From Escherichia phage VEc33, in sequence record NC_048818.1: 64,000 nt of DNA; one strand, written 5' to 3'. Shown piece by piece: positions 3,732 through 41,371 of this stretch. Numbering within the stretch: position 1 is the first letter of the stretch; every line of letters begins with the position of its first letter. Position numbers and translations under genes: made by a program. The notes under the pieces were generated by a model, which was not told the origin of the DNA, searched no databases, and saw only the letters and a program-made list of their open reading frames with translations.

Positions 3732-4139
3732 TTATTCGCCTGCGGCCTGTTTTACTTCATCGGCAACGCCTAACAATTGCGCTACTGCGTCCAGCGTTTC
3801 AAGTTTTGCACTTTCAAGGCTTGCCAAATCATCGGCGTCTTTGATAATGCCGGAATCAATAGCATGTTTAGCGATAACGCGCACATAGTGAGCTTTACGC
3901 ACAGAGCTACCGCCGCCAACTTTACGCGGCTTATCGCTTTTTTGATAGGCTTTTGCACTGGTCAATTTTGAGCGAACGGATACGGGGGAGGCCGCGCCTA
4001 CTGCTTTTGCAATCTCTTTCAGGCCGTCGCTATTTGCAAAATCTAAACCGTTTTCGTTGATTAACTGCTGGTACATGGTAACAGCTTTCTGAGTGTTTTC
4101 TTCATTCCATGCGAATTTTGCGGTTTTTGCGTTAGTCAT
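3732..4139 (-). CDS. pre-early protein, possible A2-like DNA-binding protein (135 aa)
   Basis: Position immediately upstream (in transcript order) of the A1-like gene; basic central region; hairpin terminator downstream at about 3690-3720. Confidence 0.4.
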   Translation of the reverse strand: MTNAKTAKFAWNEENTQKAVTMYQQLINENGLDFANSDGLKEIAKAVGAASPVSVRSKLTSAKAYQKSDKPRKVGGGSSVRKAHYVRVIAKHAIDSGIIKDADDLASLESAKLETLDAVAQLLGVADEVKQAAGE

Positions 4140-4242
4140 GGTAAAAACTCCTATTAGTTTAATTTAAGGGATTAGATTAGATTAACTTAATGTTAATCGT
4201 TATATCCCCCTGAAATAAGAGGGATATAAAGTTAGCACTAAA

Positions 4243-4494
4243 TTATAAAACAGCTTCCCATTTTTCGTTGCGTTGAACAACCTTTACAACATCGCCGGAT
4301 TTAACGCGAACGCTAAAAACGGGCTTGCCGTTGTTACTGCGTTCATTTTCAGCGTATACCGCGTCGATTGTATCGAACGGCATAAGCGCCGCACCTTTAA
4401 TACGTTCGGCTTTTCCGGTTAATTCGTCCATTTTAGTAACGAAAGGAATAAAAACGGATTGACCAATTTTAGGCGCGGTAATAACGTTTTGCAT
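4243..4494 (-). CDS. hypothetical pre-early protein (83 aa)
   Basis: Intact ORF with RBS; hairpin at about 4205-4235 downstream. Confidence 0.4.
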   Translation of the reverse strand: MQNVITAPKIGQSVFIPFVTKMDELTGKAERIKGAALMPFDTIDAVYAENERSNNGKPVFSVRVKSGDVVKVVQRNEKWEAVL

Positions 4495-5371
4495 AATATA
4501 AACTCCTAGTTATTTGGGGATTGTTCCGCATTACCTGCTAGAAAGTAGCAGGTAATAAGTAACAATCCGCTCGCCAGTTTAATCAATTTAAAGAACTCCA
4601 CGTAGGCCGCTATATCCCGTTAGGGGGCGGGATGCATTATGGTAAGCACCGACCGTCAAATTTTATCAAGTTATCGCTCTTTTCGAACTGGGTACATCTT
4701 AAAACCTATCGGCTAGGCTGTCAAACAATTTTTTGAGATTTTTTATGATTTTCCTTCAGGTCAATCATAATGTTTCGCCAGATCATTTCTAAACCTTGCT
4801 GGCGACCTTGCAAATATTGCTTGAATCGCCATTTTACAGAATTTTGCGCTACTGTCAACAAGTTTTTTGTTTTGCTATCTAGTGCCTTGCTAGGCTTGCC
4901 AGTGATCAAAAGCGTTTGTTTCATATCGTCGATTCCTTATAATGAATAAGTTTACCGCCGATAGGCTTTAAGATATACCCAATTTTTAAAGAGCGCGGCG
5001 GTAAACTTCCCGCCGTGTAGTTCGTCATTGCCGCCCTACGAGATACATAATAGGGGATTCCCAAAAATGGCGCAACCTTATTTTTGTAAAGAAACGTAAA
5101 GACACGATTCACCGGACGGCGTGCGGCGACGGCCTAAAATTAAAAGAAACGGGCGCGCGAATACCACAAAACAGAACAAATAGGCAAGTAATTTTTTCAT
5201 TTATATTTGCTTTGCCCTACTTGACAAAATCTAAAAAGCTCGTGGCAGTGATAAACGGCGTGCCCCCTTATGATGGGATGGCTAAAAACTTCATCGCGTT
5301 CTAGGGCGTTTTAGGCGCATTCTAGCCTTGTTGATAACTTATCCCCAAAAGCAAAAATGAAATTTTCCTAG

Positions 5372-9313: not shown

Positions 9314-9394
9314 GGGATAAGTCTGTGGATAACGCTTCAAAATGGCTAGGATTCTGTCAAGTCAAATCGTGCTGTTGATAAGTCTGTGGATAAC
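9314..9394. promoter_or_regulatory. DnaA-box pair in reverse orientation (TGTGGATAA at 9324-9332 and 9386-9394), each preceded by GATAAGTC
   Basis: Reverse complements of TTATCCACA; inverted copy of the 5741-5769 module. Confidence 0.55.
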
Positions 9395-9627
9395 TTAAAT
9401 AGCAGTGTTTCTCACTTCCGTTTTTAAATGCGAATCATTATCATTCGCATTTCACTAGCTAACCGATAATCACTCCACGTTTTAAATGAGAATCATTTCA
9501 CTTCTTGAATAGTTCTCATTCCCTTTCTTAAATGCAAATCATTATCATTCGCATTTCACTTTTTAAATGAGATTGATTCTCATTATCATTCGCATTCAGG
9601 CGAGCAGGGCAATTGCCCTGCGCTTTT

Positions 9628-10228
9628 GTGCAAATCCGACATTTGCCCCCATGGGTTACGCGTGGGCATGTATGTGCAAATCCGACAATTTTTGGTAGTG
9701 TGCAAATCCGACCCGAAAAATTTTTATAGTGTGCAAATCCGACAACGAATTTTCCCAAAAACTCCAGCAATCACGAACTGCGTTCGAATCCTGTGGAATT
9801 AGCTAGAGTATGTGCAAATCCGACATGTGTTGAGCTATGCGAATCCGACAAGATTTTTGTGACTTCGATTGGAGGGTGTGTGATTGTATAAGTTTGAGGA
9901 GAAGATGAGAGAGCGAGAGAAATTTTGGGACTAGAAGGATGTGGGCGCAGGATTGGTGCGGAGCACCTGATTTGCGTGGATTTTGGGGAAGAGTTGAGAT
10001 AATTTGGGAAGATTTGAGATAGGCGCAGAAAAAGTAAAATTTTATTAGCAAAATGGCGCAAAATAGCTTGACAAGTGAAAATTCTTGTGGCTCTAAAAAC
10101 TCAGGCAATCATGGGCCTTCGGCCCGAAATAATGCTGCTATTTTCAGGAGAGTAAGAGTTCCTAAAAACTTAGGCGTTTGTGCAAATCCGACCATAAATT
10201 TCTAGAATATCAATGTGCAAATCCGACA
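9628..10228. repeat. about 8 dispersed direct repeats of GTGCAAATCCGACA
   Basis: Copies at 9628, 9674, 9699, 9731, 9812, 9837 (variant), 10180, 10215; irregular spacing. Confidence 0.6.
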
Positions 10229-31502: not shown

Positions 31503-31593
31503 CATTTGTTTGGCGGAAGAGGAGAGATTTGAACTCTCAAGCCGTTTTACCAGTCAGCCACTTTCCAAGCGGTTTTCGTCGCCAATTCGATTT
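31503..31593 (-). tRNA. tRNA-Ser (anticodon GGA), class II, tentative
   Basis: 91 nt; ...CTCTTCC-G-CCA 3' end; anticodon loop TTGGAAA resembles E. coli Ser(GGA). Confidence 0.45.
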
Positions 31594-31705
31594 GCTCTTC
31601 CAATAATAAGATGATGCCTCTATCACACCAGGCAGTTACGCCTCGCTGGGATTCGAACCCATTAAAACAGCTCAACCGAGATAGTAGGTTTAATTTACTC
31701 TGACC

Positions 31706-31782
31706 ATCAAATTTGGTGCGTGACAAGGGATTCGAACCCTCAAAACCCGACTTCTAAGGACGGTATGTATGCCAATTCCATC
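31706..31782 (-). tRNA. tRNA with anticodon TAG (Leu-type anticodon on a short class-I body)
   Basis: Acceptor GCGTGAT/GTCACGC, discriminator A, T-arm GAGGG-TTCGAAT-CCCTT; anticodon loop CTTAGAA; one U-U in the anticodon stem. Confidence 0.45.
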
Positions 31783-31787
31783 AATCA

Positions 31788-31866
31788 CGCATATTTGGTG
31801 GAGAATAACGGAATCGAACCGTTCTGATGTCCTCGGTGCAAGCGAGGTGTCCACTCCATGCAGACC
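31788..31866 (-). tRNA. tRNA-Ala (anticodon TGC)
   Basis: Anticodon stem CCTCG/CGAGG, loop CTTGCAC; G3-U70 wobble in acceptor; discriminator A. Confidence 0.6.
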
Positions 31867-32247
31867 CATTCCCCAAATTCTTTAGTTTACTAAGGCTATT
31901 AGCTCGGCGTAACTACAGCACCTTCGCTTCGAGCGGAAGGAACTGCGTCATCTCGCAAACCCAATACACTACTCAGTTGCCGCTGAATCTAGTGGACTAA
32001 TCTAGAACCTCTCCCAAATCGTAGGGATCGTGCTTTTTGGCAGCCAGTCCTAGGTCGAGCTAATACCTTAGTGAACTAAGATGAGGATTTCTCCTCATCA
32101 ATTTATATAAATATTATAACAAGAAATTAAGCATTAAGCAACTGCGTTTTTGAAATTTCTTGGACTTGGTACTCGGTGATAGAATCTAACTATCGCTACC
32201 GCCGTGTAAAGACGGGGTTCTCTCATTAAACTAACCGAGCAAAAATT

Positions 32248-32325
32248 TGGTGGATTGCCTGGGATTCGAACCCAGAACTGACGGATTAAAGGTCCGCTAC
32301 TCTTATCCAGTTGAGCTAGCAATCC
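32248..32325 (-). tRNA. tRNA-Lys (anticodon TTT)
   Basis: Anticodon loop CCTTTAA; D stem GCTC/GAGT; discriminator A. Confidence 0.6.
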
Positions 32326-32789
32326 AAATTCTCTACTAATAGTTTAAAAGCGTCTAACAGAGGTACTTCAAACCATTCTCCTGATACTTTGTAGTCTTTC
32401 AGAAGATTATGTAATGCTTTTTCAGTTCTTCTCTTGTCCGAGGAGAATCTAAAATGGTATAACTTGTAATCACGATAGGGCGAATATGTTTGATAACTAG
32501 ACAGTCTTTCATTTACGTCTACTGTCATACCTATCTTATAGAGTCCAGGCCACGCTGGGTTACCTATTACATATACAAACCCTTCTGTTATAGGGATTTT
32601 ATGCTCCCTTTTATACTTCAGTAAGTTTAACGCTGCCATTCTATAACAGAACTTAAACTCTGAGGATTTTAGTTTACCTTCTTTACCGGATATTTCGTTA
32701 TACTTCTCCATATACCTACGTATTAAGGAGTCAGTAATAGTAAAGTGCTTTGGAAGATCCAGGGCTTGAAGTACACGGTTAATAAGCAT
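32316..32789 (-). CDS. T5orf172-domain (GIY-YIG-like) endonuclease (157 aa)
   Basis: GFVYVIGNPAWPGLYKIGMT ... YKVSGEWF core; paralog of 34543..35061. Confidence 0.65.
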   Translation of the reverse strand: MLINRVLQALDLPKHFTITDSLIRRYMEKYNEISGKEGKLKSSEFKFCYRMAALNLLKYKREHKIPITEGFVYVIGNPAWPGLYKIGMTVDVNERLSSYQTYSPYRDYKLYHFRFSSDKRRTEKALHNLLKDYKVSGEWFEVPLLDAFKLLVENLDC

Positions 32790-32963
32790 AAACTTCCTTA
32801 ATAGAATGGACTTTTAAGTAAGAATGATTAATCCCAAACTCCGCCATTACTTCTTTTTCATCTTTTCCATAATGTGCAAGTAAGGATCTTGAGGTATTAT
32901 TACCTAAACGTTTGTCGCTTACTACTAATCGAAATACTTTCATTTCGAAATCCTCTATTAAAA

Positions 32964-33041
32964 TGGAAGCGGGTGCAGGAATCGAACCTACCTCTTTCTA
33001 GCTTATGAGACTAGCGATCTCTACCAGAGATCTAACCCGCA
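32964..33041 (-). tRNA. tRNA-Met/Ile2 (anticodon CAT)
   Basis: Anticodon stem CTAGT/GCTAG, loop CTCATAA; D stem GATC/GATC. Confidence 0.5.
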
Positions 33042-33047
33042 ATTGTT

Positions 33048-33125
33048 TGGTCTCCGTGGGAGGATTTGAACCCCCGACCCTATCGCCCCAAACGAAACGC
33101 TCTGGCCAAACTGAGCTACACGGAG
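33048..33125 (-). tRNA. tRNA-Pro (anticodon TGG)
   Basis: Anticodon loop TTTGGGG; D stem GCTC/GAGC; discriminator A. Confidence 0.55.
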
Positions 33126-33498
33126 AATATTATCTTTTTAACCACAGTAAAGATAAGCCTAGCATAGTGAATCCAGTACCTAATCCAATACATTTCTCTA
33201 TAAGAGTAAATGTATCTATGTTGAATGCTGTTATAACAATTGGGATACACCACAATAGCATAAAGACTTCGGCTATCTTATACTTCATTTAGCTTTCCTT
33301 CTCTTCACTTTATAAGATATATTATACAGAGAATTAAGTAAAATAGCAAATGAATTTTTAATAAATTTACTTATTGTGTAGGCCACCTGGAGGCTACCAA
33401 CCCCACGGCTGACAAAGAAGTTTGCGAGACCTCTCTTAAAAGCCAGAATAGACCCGCCGGTCTATCGGAACCTACATAATAAGTAAACTTTATAGTGT

Positions 33499-33619
33499 CA
33501 TTCTAGGCAGGATTCGAACCTGCTATCACTTGTGCGGACTTACGAGAACCATTCTTTCACTCGAATCGAACGAGCTTCTGCCCTAGCCAAGCTGGTTTCC
33601 CCATCAACCACGCTAGAAT
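33499..33619 (-). ncRNA. tRNA-like element with an approximately 45-nt insertion (unresolved)
   Basis: Acceptor-like ATTCTAG/CTAGAAT flanking a perfect T-arm GCAGG-TTCGAAT-CCTGC and D-arm TGGT...ACCA, but about 121 nt long with a second T-arm-like hairpin. Confidence 0.25.
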
Positions 33620-33741
33620 GTTAGATTGTTTTCAGTGCAAGAGTCCGAGTCTTGGACACGACCGCTTCGCAAGTACATAGGCAGCTTATCATGAGTCAGC
33701 ACTTCCGAATTGCTAGCTCCGTGTTCTGCACTGAAATTTTA

Positions 33742-34089
33742 TTAGTTTAACCGTAAAGTATTATCTACTTCACCATTAATTGTTCGGCATTCCTCTGGGA
33801 ATGCCGGGGTGGCTTTGTATTCCCACCACTCAGCACCATCATATTCCCCACGTTCTAGCCAAGTTCCATCGGCAAACCATACATTACCATAAAGTAATTG
33901 TCCACCGTATCCAGAATCATATTCAAAGTCTAGGTTATTAAGAAAATCCTCAATATCTTCTTCTGTATAACCTAAAGGTAATACCCAAACTTTTTTATCC
34001 CCATAATACCCAAATTCTATTTTAATACACTTAACTTCAGAATTAGTATTTTTTAAGGCAAGTAACAACTCTTCTTTGGCATTACGCAT
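33742..34089 (-). CDS. hypothetical protein (115 aa)
   Basis: ORF; Trp/Tyr/Gly-rich. Confidence 0.45.
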   Translation of the reverse strand: MRNAKEELLLALKNTNSEVKCIKIEFGYYGDKKVWVLPLGYTEEDIEDFLNNLDFEYDSGYGGQLLYGNVWFADGTWLERGEYDGAEWWEYKATPAFPEECRTINGEVDNTLRLN

Positions 34090-34114
34090 AGTATATTCTC
34101 ATACTGAATTAATT

Positions 34115-34191
34115 TGGCGCGACCGATGGGATTTGAACCCACATTCTCTCCCGTGACAGGGGAGTACCATTACCAAGCCAGCCCCGGTCGC
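34115..34191 (-). tRNA. tRNA-Asp (anticodon GTC)
   Basis: Anticodon stem CTCCC/GGGAG, loop CTGTCAC; discriminator G. Confidence 0.6.
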
Positions 34192-34200
34192 ATAATTTAT

Positions 34201-34386
34201 TTACTCAGCTTTGAGTTTTTCAATAGCTGCATTAAGTTCTTTAAGAAACTCTTTTCGTACATTAAGACGATTGAGACTTACTAGTATATCATGTTTAAGT
34301 TCTTCGATATATTTCTTCTCAACTTCAATATTGTTGATAGTGCTATCACGATGAACTTCTAGCTGCGCAATCACATTCTTGGACAT
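34201..34386 (-). CDS. hypothetical small protein (61 aa)
   Basis: ORF. Confidence 0.35.
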   Translation of the reverse strand: MSKNVIAQLEVHRDSTINNIEVEKKYIEELKHDILVSLNRLNVRKEFLKELNAAIEKLKAE

Positions 34387-34488
34387 ACTTATTTCCTCAG
34401 TTATTAATGAAAATGGTATCTGTGGCTGAATTCGATGTCAGCAATGATAGCTGGTTGGCTACCGGTTTACTTAACTCTACACAGAATT

Positions 34489-34566
34489 TGGCGGTTCCTG
34501 CTGGATTCGAACCAGCAACCCTCAACTTAACAAGATGCCGCTCTAACCAATTAGAGCTAAGGAACC
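34489..34566 (-). tRNA. tRNA-Asn (anticodon GTT), tentative
   Basis: Acceptor GGTTCCT/AGGAACC, T-arm GCTGG-TTCGAAT-CCAGC, loop TTGTTAA; anticodon stem poorly paired. Confidence 0.4.
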
Positions 34567-35061
34567 ATATAAGTCAGAACTAGAGTTAATACGTTCTAGA
34601 TATTTACTAAGATCTCTAGAATTTATACTAAACCACTCATGCTCTTTTAAATCTTTGAAATACCGGTGAATTAGTTTTTCACCTTTTCGTTTGTCAAACC
34701 AAAAAGACCAGTGCTCTAACTTATAATCCCTATAAGGGGAATAAGTCTGATATTGAGCTAATCTCTCTTTTGGATTTTGACTCATACCTATTTTATACTG
34801 ATTTTTCCATGCAGGATTACTAATACAGTATACAAAACCTTCAGAAATAGGAAGTTTATTTTCCTGCTTAAACTTTATAAAGGAAAGTGCAGCAAGTTTT
34901 CTCGAATACATAGTATTCGTATTCTTTTTGGTATTACCATTGGTTCCTGAAAGATTTATATATTCTTCCATAAATCTTTGGATTAGTTCTGCGGTTATAT
35001 AGAAGGGCTCATTAGTAACAACGCCTTTCTTTACCAAACTATCAAAAACTTTTGTATGCAC
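34543..35061 (-). CDS. T5orf172-domain (GIY-YIG-like) endonuclease (172 aa)
   Basis: GFVYCISNPAWKNQYKIGMS ... EHEWF core; 172 aa, the namesake size of the T5orf172 domain; 3' end overlaps the tRNA. Confidence 0.65.
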   Translation of the reverse strand: MHTKVFDSLVKKGVVTNEPFYITAELIQRFMEEYINLSGTNGNTKKNTNTMYSRKLAALSFIKFKQENKLPISEGFVYCISNPAWKNQYKIGMSQNPKERLAQYQTYSPYRDYKLEHWSFWFDKRKGEKLIHRYFKDLKEHEWFSINSRDLSKYLERINSSSDLYGSLALIG

Positions 35062-35082
35062 TACTTCTTTCCTTTAGCAAAT

Positions 35083-35158
35083 TGGACGACCGCATGAGAT
35101 TTGAACTCACATAAAAAGGATTTGCAATCCTTCGCCTAAGCCATTCAGCCAACGGTCG
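35083..35158 (-). tRNA. tRNA-Cys (anticodon GCA)
   Basis: Anticodon stem AAGGA/TCCTT, loop TTGCAAA; discriminator U. Confidence 0.6.
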
Positions 35159-35235
35159 GTTTATCTTGTTCTGTCATGTTGCTTCTCCAGTTCAATTTAT
35201 GTAATTATTATACAGAACTTTTGGAAACTAAGCAA

Positions 35236-35514
35236 CTACATTTTTAAGAATTTGATGCCTTTCTTTTTCTTCTTATATTTCCACGTTAATGGATTCTGCC
35301 GATTGTGAACGCTTGAGATCTTCGTCTCGTCAAAGTTCTTCAATATCATGTAATCACAAGATAATTGTTCTAATGGAATGTGATCACCGTCAAAAGCATA
35401 TACATAAGGTTGTTGACTAGCACGATAATGATAGACTTTGTTAATTCTACGTTTTAGCGACTTATCAGCGCAGTAAATAAAGAAGTTTTCAGGATGCATC
35501 AGCATCTCCTTCAA
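35236..35514 (-). CDS. hypothetical protein (92 aa)
   Basis: ORF. Confidence 0.4.
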   Translation of the reverse strand: MKEMLMHPENFFIYCADKSLKRRINKVYHYRASQQPYVYAFDGDHIPLEQLSCDYMILKNFDETKISSVHNRQNPLTWKYKKKKKGIKFLKM

Positions 35515-35516
35515 TT

Positions 35517-35591
35517 TGGTGCACCCTGTTCGTATCGAACGAACCTCTCAAGCTCTTCAGGCAAGCGCTAATCCATCTCAGCTAAAGGTGC
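35517..35591 (-). tRNA. tRNA-Phe (anticodon GAA), tentative
   Basis: T-arm GTTCG-TTCGATA-CGAAC; anticodon loop CTGAAGA; weak anticodon stem. Confidence 0.45.
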
Positions 35592-35597
35592 AAATTT

Positions 35598-35674
35598 TGG
35601 CAAACCTACTAGGACTCGAACCTAGACCGTACGGTTTTAGAGACCGACATGCTGTCCAGTAACACTCTAGGAAT
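35598..35674 (-). tRNA. Trp-like tRNA with anticodon CTA (reads UAG), candidate amber suppressor
   Basis: T-arm CTAGG-TTCGAGT-CCTAG and discriminator G as in E. coli tRNA-Trp; anticodon arm TCGGT-CTCTAAA-ACCGT differs from the Trp loop CTCCAAA by one base; acceptor stem has two U-U mismatches. Confidence 0.4.
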
Positions 35675-35682
35675 GCAGAAAT

Positions 35683-35759
35683 TGGCGTCCTGTGCGGGGA
35701 TCGAACCCGCAAATCCTACCTTGAAAGGGTAGTGACTTTACCAGTTTGTCTAACAGGAC
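35683..35759 (-). tRNA. tRNA-Glu (anticodon TTC)
   Basis: Acceptor GTCCTGT/ACAGGAC perfect; anticodon stem CTACC/GGTAG, loop CTTTCAA. Confidence 0.65.
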
Positions 35760-35766
35760 TTAAATT

Positions 35767-35857
35767 TGGTGTTGGATGATGGAGTCGAACCACCCGAGAC
35801 CCTTCCGAGTCGGCAGATTTACAGTCTGCTTCGCTACCTCTACGATACTAATCCAAC
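35767..35857 (-). tRNA. tRNA-Tyr (anticodon GTA), class II
   Basis: 91 nt; acceptor GTTGGAT/ATCCAAC; anticodon stem GCAGA/TCTGC, loop CTGTAAA. Confidence 0.6.
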
Positions 35858-35985
35858 ATATTTAAAAGTATTCAAATACTAGTTTAAACACTTTTAAATA
35901 TGTTTCCGAATTAGATAACTATTATATCAAGTTTTAAGGCACTGAGCAAGTCAAATTTTAAAGAACTTGCTCAGTGCTGTATTAG

Positions 35986-36261
35986 TTAGTCGAACTTAGG
36001 AGTGACAGTTAAGGAGAACGGAAGTTCGAAAACTTCTTCGCCCTCATTACTAACGGTAACTACACGACCTTTAAGTTCAGACATTAAAATATCAATATCA
36101 GCTTTTGCATCTGGAGCCATGCCAGCTTCAATACATTTAGCTTTAACTTCCGGTAAAAGCTCTACGTTATAGAGATAGAGCCACTCAATCTCACCTTCCC
36201 AGTCTTCCCAGGATTTGCAGATTGCACTTTCAATACCAGTTGCTACAACACGATTTTGCAT
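35986..36261 (-). CDS. hypothetical acidic protein (91 aa)
   Basis: ORF with promoter motif upstream. Confidence 0.45.
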   Translation of the reverse strand: MQNRVVATGIESAICKSWEDWEGEIEWLYLYNVELLPEVKAKCIEAGMAPDAKADIDILMSELKGRVVTVSNEGEEVFELPFSLTVTPKFD

Positions 36262-36351
36262 TAATTAACTCCTCCATCAATTTATATAATTATTATATCA
36301 GAAATTTAAGGCAAAAGGCAAGTACATTTTTAAAAATTCTGTTTGGAGGAG

Positions 36352-36558
36352 CTAAACTCCAGATTCTTCAGCTAAGTCTAGGCTAATAAGAGTTATAGCC
36401 ATAATTGCTGCACCGTGTTCTTTTTCTCCGGTGTTTTTAGCAGAGTCTATAATAGTCTTAATCTGTTCGTAATAGCCCTTTACTTCTTGTTCAATACCTG
36501 CCTCGGCTATCATGCCTTTAGTCATGATTCGTTGCATAGTAATTTCACGGTTAGCCAT
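36352..36558 (-). CDS. hypothetical small protein (68 aa)
   Basis: ORF. Confidence 0.35.
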   Translation of the reverse strand: MANREITMQRIMTKGMIAEAGIEQEVKGYYEQIKTIIDSAKNTGEKEHGAAIMAITLISLDLAEESGV

Positions 36559-36733
36559 GATGTTTCTCCAATTTCATCTTTAATAGTCTACAAATAAAAT
36601 CAATGTCTTCATCCGTGCCTAGATCTCTATCTTCAAGAGTTGCCTTGAAGTTTTTAGTCAATTCCATGAGGATAACTTCTCTAGAACGACGTGTTGGCGG
36701 AGGTGGATGTCTATACATCTTATTTCCTTAATT

Positions 36734-36810
36734 TGGTAGGGGTGGTGGGATTCGAACCCACAAAACCTGAATTTTAAGTCCAGTACCTATGCCAATTCGA
36801 TTACACCCCC
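36734..36810 (-). tRNA. tRNA with anticodon TAA (Leu-type anticodon on a class-I body)
   Basis: T-arm GTGGG-TTCGAAT-CCCAC; anticodon stem CTGGA/TTCAG, loop CTTAAAA; discriminator A; 5-nt variable loop. Confidence 0.5.
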
Positions 36811-37025: not shown

Positions 37026-37103
37026 TGGTGGCTCCCCGAGGATTCGAACCTACGTACCTTCCGGTTATGAGCCGGGTGCTCATACCATATGAGCTTGAGA
37101 ACC
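37026..37103 (-). tRNA. tRNA-Met/fMet (anticodon CAT)
   Basis: Anticodon loop CTCATAA with a G-C-rich stem; third CAT tRNA in the cluster. Confidence 0.45.
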
Positions 37104-41299: not shown

Positions 41300-41371
41300 T
41301 ACCGACCGTAGGATTCGAACCTACATCTTCCACCAGTTACGGCTTGATAATACCAATTATACTAGGACGGC
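41300..41371 (-). ncRNA. tRNA-like element (acceptor and T-arm present, anticodon arm not foldable)
   Basis: Perfect T-arm GTAGG-TTCGAAT-CCTAC and acceptor-like GCCGTCC/GGTCGGT; no CCA; sits in an 840-bp ORF-free region. Confidence 0.25.

Follow-up and report, generated by a model that had tools for sequence, protein, structure and literature searches.

In a recent review the long variable arm of leucine tRNA is described as universal outside animal mitochondria (PMC9976931), and among bacteria the literature yielded a single exception, a Streptomyces tRNA. Here we describe two genuine leucine tRNA genes, tRNA-Leu(UAG) and tRNA-Leu(UAA), that have no long variable arm and lie in a T5-like phage (Tequintavirus, 39% GC), Escherichia phage VEc33. 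The stretch analysed, referred to below as the window, comprises 64,000 nucleotides of sequence record NC_048818.1. Animal mitochondrial tRNA-Leu(UUR) and tRNA-Leu(CUN) are likewise class I and take their identity from A73 and A14 without a long arm (PMC9976931), but they are structurally degenerate and have a dedicated mitochondrial leucyl-tRNA synthetase (LeuRS), whereas the elbow of the phage tRNAs is fully canonical (G18G19, UUCGAAU) and their charging presumably depends on bacterial LeuRS. The Streptomyces exception, type I tRNA-Leu(CAA) of S. coelicolor, also has a 5-nt variable loop and is found alongside class II tRNA-Leu in a bacterium with a single LeuRS; for good charging the loop needed at least 5 nt, nucleotide 48 among them (PMC6614811). 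Its loop is ACAGC with C48, in contrast to GUUUU with U48 in the phage tRNAs, and in that system A73 is not critical and charging needs the Streptomyces-type LSD of LeuRS (PMC6614811), whereas the phage tRNAs carry the full E. coli-type determinants. Finally, armless derivatives of E. coli tRNA-Leu were engineered by Asahara, Tocchini-Valentini and Larkin, and as summarised in PMC9976931 E. coli LeuRS could dispense with the arm provided that A73, A15:U48, G18G19/A20a and the D/T-loop contacts were kept. The phage tRNAs keep just these elements, but the derivatives are laboratory constructs, whereas the armless tRNA-Leu of phages are natural, recurrent and frequent.

Two class II tRNAs of the same anticodon can be compared directly. 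The host tRNA-Leu(UAG), encoded by leuW, resembles the phage tRNAs in its 3-bp D stem, G13/A22, AAUUGGNAN loop, U8, A15/U48, T loop and A73, but its variable region is 8 nt longer and forms a stem-loop, and it has G37 where the phage has A37. Phage T5 encodes tRNA-Leu1(UAG) (T5t10, NC_005859 31624-31708), which belongs to the same operon and genus as the window tRNA-Leu(UAG), occupies the same slot directly downstream of tRNA-Ala, and shares its anticodon, A73, A14/A15, G18G19, A37 and encoded CCA. It differs in being an 85-nt class II tRNA with a 13-nt variable arm, and elsewhere it is about 70% similar to the window gene. Genes of the armless kind routinely carry the annotation tRNA-Leu, though some are labelled 'tRNA-OTHER' and others have been left unannotated; their existence is therefore already on record. 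No paper on class I tRNA-Leu in phages was found in the literature covered, which excluded subscription journals and the older Russian work on T5.

The two genes and their diagnostic parts are as follows.

31714-31790, minus strand: tRNA-Leu(UAG) gene, 77 nt including the encoded CCA, class I body (ARAGORN and Rfam)
Sequence of tRNA-Leu(UAG): GCGUGAU UG AUGG AAUUGGCAU ACAU A CCGUC CUUAGAA GUCGG GUUUU GAGGG UUCGAAU CCCUU GUCACGC A CCA
31754-31756, minus strand: anticodon of tRNA-Leu(UAG), CTA on the plus strand (sequence and ARAGORN, anticodon at position 35)
31742-31746, minus strand: variable loop GUUUU of tRNA-Leu(UAG), 5 nt, positions 44-48 (ARAGORN brackets, Rfam alignment)
36734-36810, minus strand: tRNA-Leu(UAA) gene, 77 nt including the encoded CCA, class I body (ARAGORN and Rfam)
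Sequence of tRNA-Leu(UAA): GGGGGUG UA AUCG AAUUGGCAU AGGU A CUGGA CUUAAAA UUCAG GUUUU GUGGG UUCGAAU CCCAC CACCCCU A CCA
36774-36776, minus strand: anticodon of tRNA-Leu(UAA), TTA on the plus strand (sequence and ARAGORN)
36762-36766, minus strand: variable loop GUUUU of tRNA-Leu(UAA), 5 nt, positions 44-48 (ARAGORN brackets, Rfam alignment)

A first-pass annotation, folded by hand, had proposed two 77-nt tRNAs with 5-nt variable loops, anticodons UAG and UAA, and discriminator A73. ARAGORN and Rfam agree on the length and the loop, the ARAGORN calls and the sequence on the anticodons, and the sequence and Rfam on A73, which is present in both tRNAs. The coordinates of the UAA gene were exact, but those of the UAG gene (31706-31782) had been placed 8 nt too low, and the segment so delimited has no tRNA-like fold (z = +0.83). 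The worry that hand-folding had gone astray proved unfounded: both predictors return a short-arm cloverleaf, and the long arm that a correct fold might have revealed is not seen, the variable loop being 5 nt in each.

In the ARAGORN fold both tRNAs have an acceptor stem of 7 bp, a D stem of 3 bp, a D loop of 11 nt, an anticodon stem of 5 bp, a variable loop of 5 nt and a T stem of 5 bp. Full-model matches to Rfam RF00005 within 14 kb score 47.5 bits (E 1e-7) for tRNA-Leu(UAG) and 57.4 bits (E 2e-10) for tRNA-Leu(UAA), and the variable region is aligned as GUUuU in both with high posterior probability. At 5 nt it falls within the 4-5 nt of class I tRNAs and short of class II architecture, which has a variable arm of at least 10 nt with a stem. 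The D arm is not of the class I type, with a 4-bp stem and a Watson-Crick pair 13:22; instead there are 3 bp, an unpaired G13/A22 and the D loop AAUUGGCAU, and this 3-bp geometry with 13:22 unpaired is common to E. coli leuW and the class II T5 tRNA-Leu1. U48 of tRNA-Leu(UAG) is able to form a Levitt pair with A15. Minimum free energy folding of the correct sequences of the two tRNAs gave no cloverleaf (z about -1.3), as is usual for single tRNAs, and the fold calls rest on ARAGORN and Rfam. The 5 nt between the anticodon stem and the T stem leave no room for a hidden long arm or an intron, and both ideas were rejected. Stop-codon-related or suppressor tRNAs were also rejected, since UAG and UAA are here the anticodons that read the sense codons CUA and UUA.

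The bodies of both tRNAs are of leucine type. E. coli LeuRS reads A73, the A15:U48 Levitt pair, G18G19 and A20a, with U8:A14 and the D/T-loop contacts G18:U55, G19:C56 and U54:A58 as further determinants; it requires neither the anticodon nor the long arm, and truncated tRNA-Leu without the arm is still active (Giege and Eriani, PMC9976931). Both window tRNAs hold A73, U8, A14, A15, U48, G18, G19, A20a, U54, U55, C56 and A58, and their anticodons UAG and UAA are of Leu type (NAG/NAA). They are collinear with E. coli leuW (NC_000913) and with T5 tRNA-Leu1 apart from a single 8-nt gap in the variable region. Viral and bacterial loci supplied ARAGORN-parsed tRNAs from which profile hidden Markov models (HMMs) of the isotypes were built after the anticodon had been masked and the variable region cut out; for Leu, training was restricted to class II tRNAs outside the selection by search patterns. 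Leu ranked first for tRNA-Leu(UAG) (36.6 against 24.6 bits) and for tRNA-Leu(UAA) (41.9 against 33.7 bits). Held-out tRNAs were assigned correctly in 301/403 cases overall and in 14/14 for Leu, and in viral loci Leu was called for 164 of 224 class I tRNAs with a Leu anticodon, as against 10 of 1636 class I tRNAs of other isotypes. In addition, a 75-nt homologue from Mooglevirus is annotated as tRNA-Leu by tRNAscan-SE. The identity set, the homology to class II tRNA-Leu and the isotype HMMs thus support the proposal of the first-pass annotation that these are compact leucine tRNAs. Pairwise identity with cheap gaps was also tried for finding the nearest class II relative and discarded, as the alignments were fragmented and the identities inflated (e.g., 88% to tRNA-Thr).

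Both genes are strongly conserved. tRNA-Leu(UAG) is 100% identical in 129 phage records and tRNA-Leu(UAA) in 291, while their flanks are only 92-96% identical across phages. In 81 of 102 distinct 77-nt viral homologues all 20 modelled pairs form. U8, A14, A15, G18, G19, A20a, U48, U55, C56, A58 and A73 are invariant (102/102) and position 54 is T in 101/102; the search pattern behind this set left U48, A73 and A20a free. Canonical pairs fill 94% of the stem cells, compared with 40-48% when the partners are slid. At all modelled stem positions but one (20 of 21) there are double or compensatory changes; the one exception is 13:22, which is never Watson-Crick (GA 61, CA 25, AA 6, others). Differences between a window tRNA and the allele of phage SpoonbillGilly also include compensatory changes.

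Leucine codon usage in the window is ordinary apart from AT bias, and this bias bears directly on the two anticodons. Among 60 long open reading frames (ORFs) of the window, CUA is used 16.8 times per 1000 codons (19.5% of Leu) and UUA 23.1 times (26.9%). The corresponding values in 50 kb of E. coli K-12, obtained with the same ORF caller, are 2.9 (2.9% of Leu) and 11.6 (11.4%). The suggestion that the tRNAs serve A/U-ending Leu codons of an AT-rich phage, for which a comparison with the host had been advised, is supported: CUA is 5.8 times and UUA 2.0 times as frequent as in the E. coli sample. Among Leu codons the excess over the host is greatest for these two, and they are thus matched by the two phage isoacceptors. 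By wobble, tRNA-Leu(UAG) would read CUG in addition to CUA, and tRNA-Leu(UAA) would read UUG in addition to UUA (decoding ranges and wobble modifications are predicted).

We suggest, with a probability of about 0.8, that both are working leucine tRNAs charged by the host LeuRS through A73 and the determinants of the core and elbow. Judging from sequence, both are most likely transcribed, processed and charged by LeuRS. Their ancestor would have been an ordinary class II tRNA-Leu from which the variable stem-loop was deleted, with retention of a class-II-type D arm (3-bp stem, unpaired N13/A22, D loop AAUUGGYAN) and of all elements known to be read by LeuRS. As the bacterial enzyme needs neither arm nor anticodon, the host LeuRS should charge both armless tRNAs with leucine, and the charged tRNAs would decode CUA (and CUG) and UUA (and UUG) in a classical case of codon supplementation. 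Bacterial TyrRS uses the long arm of its tRNA. SerRS recognises class II tRNAs only and likewise reads the long arm (PMC7609411), whereas LeuRS does without it, which would explain why the arm has been lost only in Leu. The simplest reading of frequent arm loss in phages is relaxed selection on charging efficiency together with a deletion bias.

Several observations weigh against this explanation. Foremost among them, the type I tRNA-Leu(CAA) of S. coelicolor was not charged by E. coli LeuRS (PMC6614811); with C48, however, that tRNA is missing one of the E. coli determinants present in the phage tRNAs. In the crystal structure of the E. coli LeuRS-tRNA complex, the C-terminal domain contacts arm nucleotides 47f-47i, and charging without the arm may therefore be less efficient. 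The isotype classifier is home-made and 75% accurate overall, the anticodon stem of tRNA-Leu(UAG) has one mismatch (U30.U40 in the Rfam alignment), and the class ratios given below come from samples selected by pattern. Finally, position 37 is A in the window tRNA-Leu(UAG) and in T5 tRNA-Leu1, compared with G in E. coli leuW. In CUN-reading bacterial tRNA-Leu, G37 is methylated by TrmD, and phage tRNAs with A37 instead may therefore bypass that modification. The A37 in question lies at 31753 of the window; among the class I viral homologues A37 is found in 91/102 and G37 in 11/102.

Class I tRNA-Leu of this type are widespread. Similar tRNAs are found in Ounavirinae (Felix O1-like), in other large enterobacterial phages (about 147 kb) and in phages of Vibrio, Aeromonas, Pseudomonas and Streptomyces. 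One four-gene tRNA cluster of Pseudomonas phage ZC03 holds an 84-nt class II and a 77-nt class I tRNA-Leu, and hence both architectures coexist in a single phage genome.

37-120 and 299-375 of the extracted locus: tRNA-Leu genes of Pseudomonas phage ZC03

A class-I-specific pattern retrieved at least 120 loci from IMG/VR, where ARAGORN identified at least 183 distinct Leu-anticodon tRNAs of 80 nt or less. With a second pattern, which sets no condition on the variable region (Leu-type D loop plus CUUAGAA), the ratio of class I to class II was 52:29 on viral contigs and 8:42 on bacterial and archaeal genome contigs (Fisher p = 4.5e-8), these being ratios in pattern-selected samples and no census. 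Five of the 8 bacterial class I genes lie in tRNA arrays (12-25 tRNAs per 8 kb). Leu tRNAs of the viral loci that match neither pattern comprise 73 of class I and 72 of class II; in the former A73 is present in 73/73 and U48 in 72/73. The ratio of class II to class I in the same viral loci is 165:2 for Ser and 70:1-2 for Tyr, but 101:224 for Leu. About half or more of the phage tRNA-Leu sampled from IMG/VR are class I, while Ser and Tyr stay class II. Some viral class I and class II Leu tRNAs form pairs that are 94-96% identical outside the variable region; these values come from a cheap-gap scheme, yet they are sound, as the printed sequences are visibly collinear. Such near-identical relatives indicate that the arm was deleted (less likely gained) repeatedly. 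The phage class I tRNA-Leu(UAA) is absent from all 5,426 complete E. coli genomes searched.

This distribution also bears on a second idea, which would add to codon supplementation by LeuRS-charged tRNAs without replacing it, namely that loss of the arm is a phage-specific adaptation and not neutral decay. Armless Leu tRNAs would escape host effectors that dock on the long arm, so that decoding of CUA and UUA would survive inactivation of the host class II tRNAs by nucleotidyltransferase toxins or nucleases. Toxins of the MenT/AbiEii type and class-II-specific nucleases would be candidate effectors, and HNH homing endonucleases beside the tRNA genes would shuffle class I and class II alleles among T5-like phages. 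We regard this reading as unlikely. The viral enrichment of class I, the dense arrays that hold five of the eight bacterial cases, and the repeated independent deletions indicated by near-identical pairs are all consistent with it; moreover, arm-dependent effectors have precedent (MenT3 and probably AbiEii), and the evasion of tRNA-targeting defences by phage tRNAs is an established idea (PMC10264068). However, no known E. coli or Salmonella defence that targets tRNA-Leu via the arm was found in the literature. Phage Ser and Tyr tRNAs keep their arms, and the same effectors would therefore still cripple translation. In addition, about half of phage tRNA-Leu are still class II, including that of the T5 type strain, and relaxed constraint with a deletion bias accounts for the same data.

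It is highly improbable that the two tRNAs, despite their Leu anticodons, are not leucine acceptors but receive a different amino acid (sense-codon recoding) or stay uncharged and serve as decoys or regulators. Precedent for recoding comes from yeast mitochondria, which reassign CUN with class I tRNA-Thr(UAG) and tRNA-Ala(UAG) (PMC7609411), and the failure of E. coli LeuRS to charge the S. coelicolor type I tRNA (PMC6614811) points in the same direction, as does the 'tRNA-OTHER' label of some homologues in GenBank. Nevertheless, the body is Leu-type in every test. The anticodon loop of tRNA-Leu(UAG) has 7 nt, not the 8 nt of yeast mitochondrial tRNA-Thr(UAG), and G3-C70 takes the place of the G3:U70 pair of AlaRS. 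Most other synthetases read the anticodon, which is here of Leu type. The tRNAscan-SE call for the Mooglevirus homologue and a phage Leu codon usage that is ordinary save for AT bias also argue against recoding. Decaying pseudogenes or artefacts of a wrong fold can practically be dismissed, for although T5-like tRNA regions hold probable remnants (31640-31661, see below) and T5 has 'tRNA-like stable RNAs', and although tRNA-Leu(UAG) has its one stem mismatch, two independent predictors give the same fold, identity is 100% across hundreds of phages with flanks at 92-96%, compensatory changes are abundant, and the encoded CCA and the conserved tertiary nucleotides are intact.

Armless leucine tRNAs of this kind are natural substrates with which the role of the arm in bacteria and the handling of class I substrates by LeuRS can be addressed, and they also allow one to ask if host tRNA-directed defences shape phage tRNAs. 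The armless form is confined to the one class II isotype whose synthetase can dispense with the arm. Annotation is affected as well, since some pipelines label such genes 'tRNA-OTHER' or miss them, and the design of compact or orthogonal tRNAs may benefit.

According to ARAGORN the window has 23 minus-strand tRNA genes from 28.9 to 40.8 kb, and among these tRNA-Ser (89-90 nt) and tRNA-Tyr (91 nt) retain long arms. The tRNA region is 96% identical to that of Escherichia phage T5_ev219 and is matched by more than 600 phage records. In T5 itself an HNH endonuclease gene lies at each of the two tRNA-Leu loci.

4023-4607 of the extracted T5 locus (NC_005859): hegC, compared with window 31602-31874
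9380-10063 of the extracted T5 locus (NC_005859): hegA, compared with window 36734-36810

tRNA-Leu1 is followed in T5 by hegC, and Ala-Leu-hegC is a different cassette, homology to the window resuming only in tRNA-Ser. hegA sits where the window has tRNA-Leu(UAA), and T5 keeps only the tRNA end CCTACCA at the junction. At 95% identity or more, the class I UAG allele is present in 160 records of the phage collection and the T5 class II UAG allele in 52; the T5 type strain therefore represents the minority form, and in T5-like phages the commoner allele is an armless tRNA-Leu with the full E. coli-type identity set. The class I UAA gene is found in 324 records at the same threshold. It appears that homing endonucleases are responsible for the exchange of tRNA alleles in this part of the genome. 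In phage SpoonbillGilly another HNH gene lies between tRNA-Ala and an unannotated class I tRNA-Leu.

The neighbours of tRNA-Leu(UAG) include features that one or both predictors passed over. At 31796-31874 (minus strand) there is a 79-nt tRNA-Ala(UGC), reported by ARAGORN but not by Rfam at the gathering threshold, which retains G3:U70 and is an allele very unlike the 75-nt tRNA-Ala of T5. On the other side, at 31511-31601 (minus strand), a 91-nt class II tRNA-Ser(GGA) was missed both by ARAGORN and by Rfam at the gathering threshold; in the alignment it shows no difference from the tRNA-Ser annotated in T5_ev219. Between tRNA-Leu(UAG) and tRNA-Ser(GGA) the spacer contains, at 31640-31661 (minus strand), a fragment resembling a T arm and acceptor, GGGTTCGAATCCCAGCGAGGC, with no complete tRNA. 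It is also present in T5_ev219 and is probably what is left of a former tRNA gene.

The gene at 35598-35674 (minus strand) is called 'tRNA-Pyl(cta)' by ARAGORN. Compared with T5_ev219 it is the phage tRNA-Trp with a single difference, C to T at the central anticodon nucleotide (CCA to CUA), and its body scores as Trp in the isotype HMMs (41.2 against 28.2 bits). It is a predicted amber-suppressor allele of tRNA-Trp. Among 50,697 phage genomes no record is 100% identical to it, and 277 are 95-99% identical; the twelve matches listed are at 98.7%, with one mismatch, which in T5_ev219 is the CCA anticodon. Four of the 60 long ORFs of the window end in TAG. The allele may be a suppressor that arose naturally, a mutant selected in the laboratory or an error of sequencing.

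Two further tRNA-like matches on the minus strand were reported by Rfam and missed by ARAGORN. That at 37029-37103 (40.3 bits) corresponds to T5 tRNA-Ile2(CAU), and that at 41300-41371 (35.5 bits) lies in a region annotated as the stable 'RNAX' in T5.

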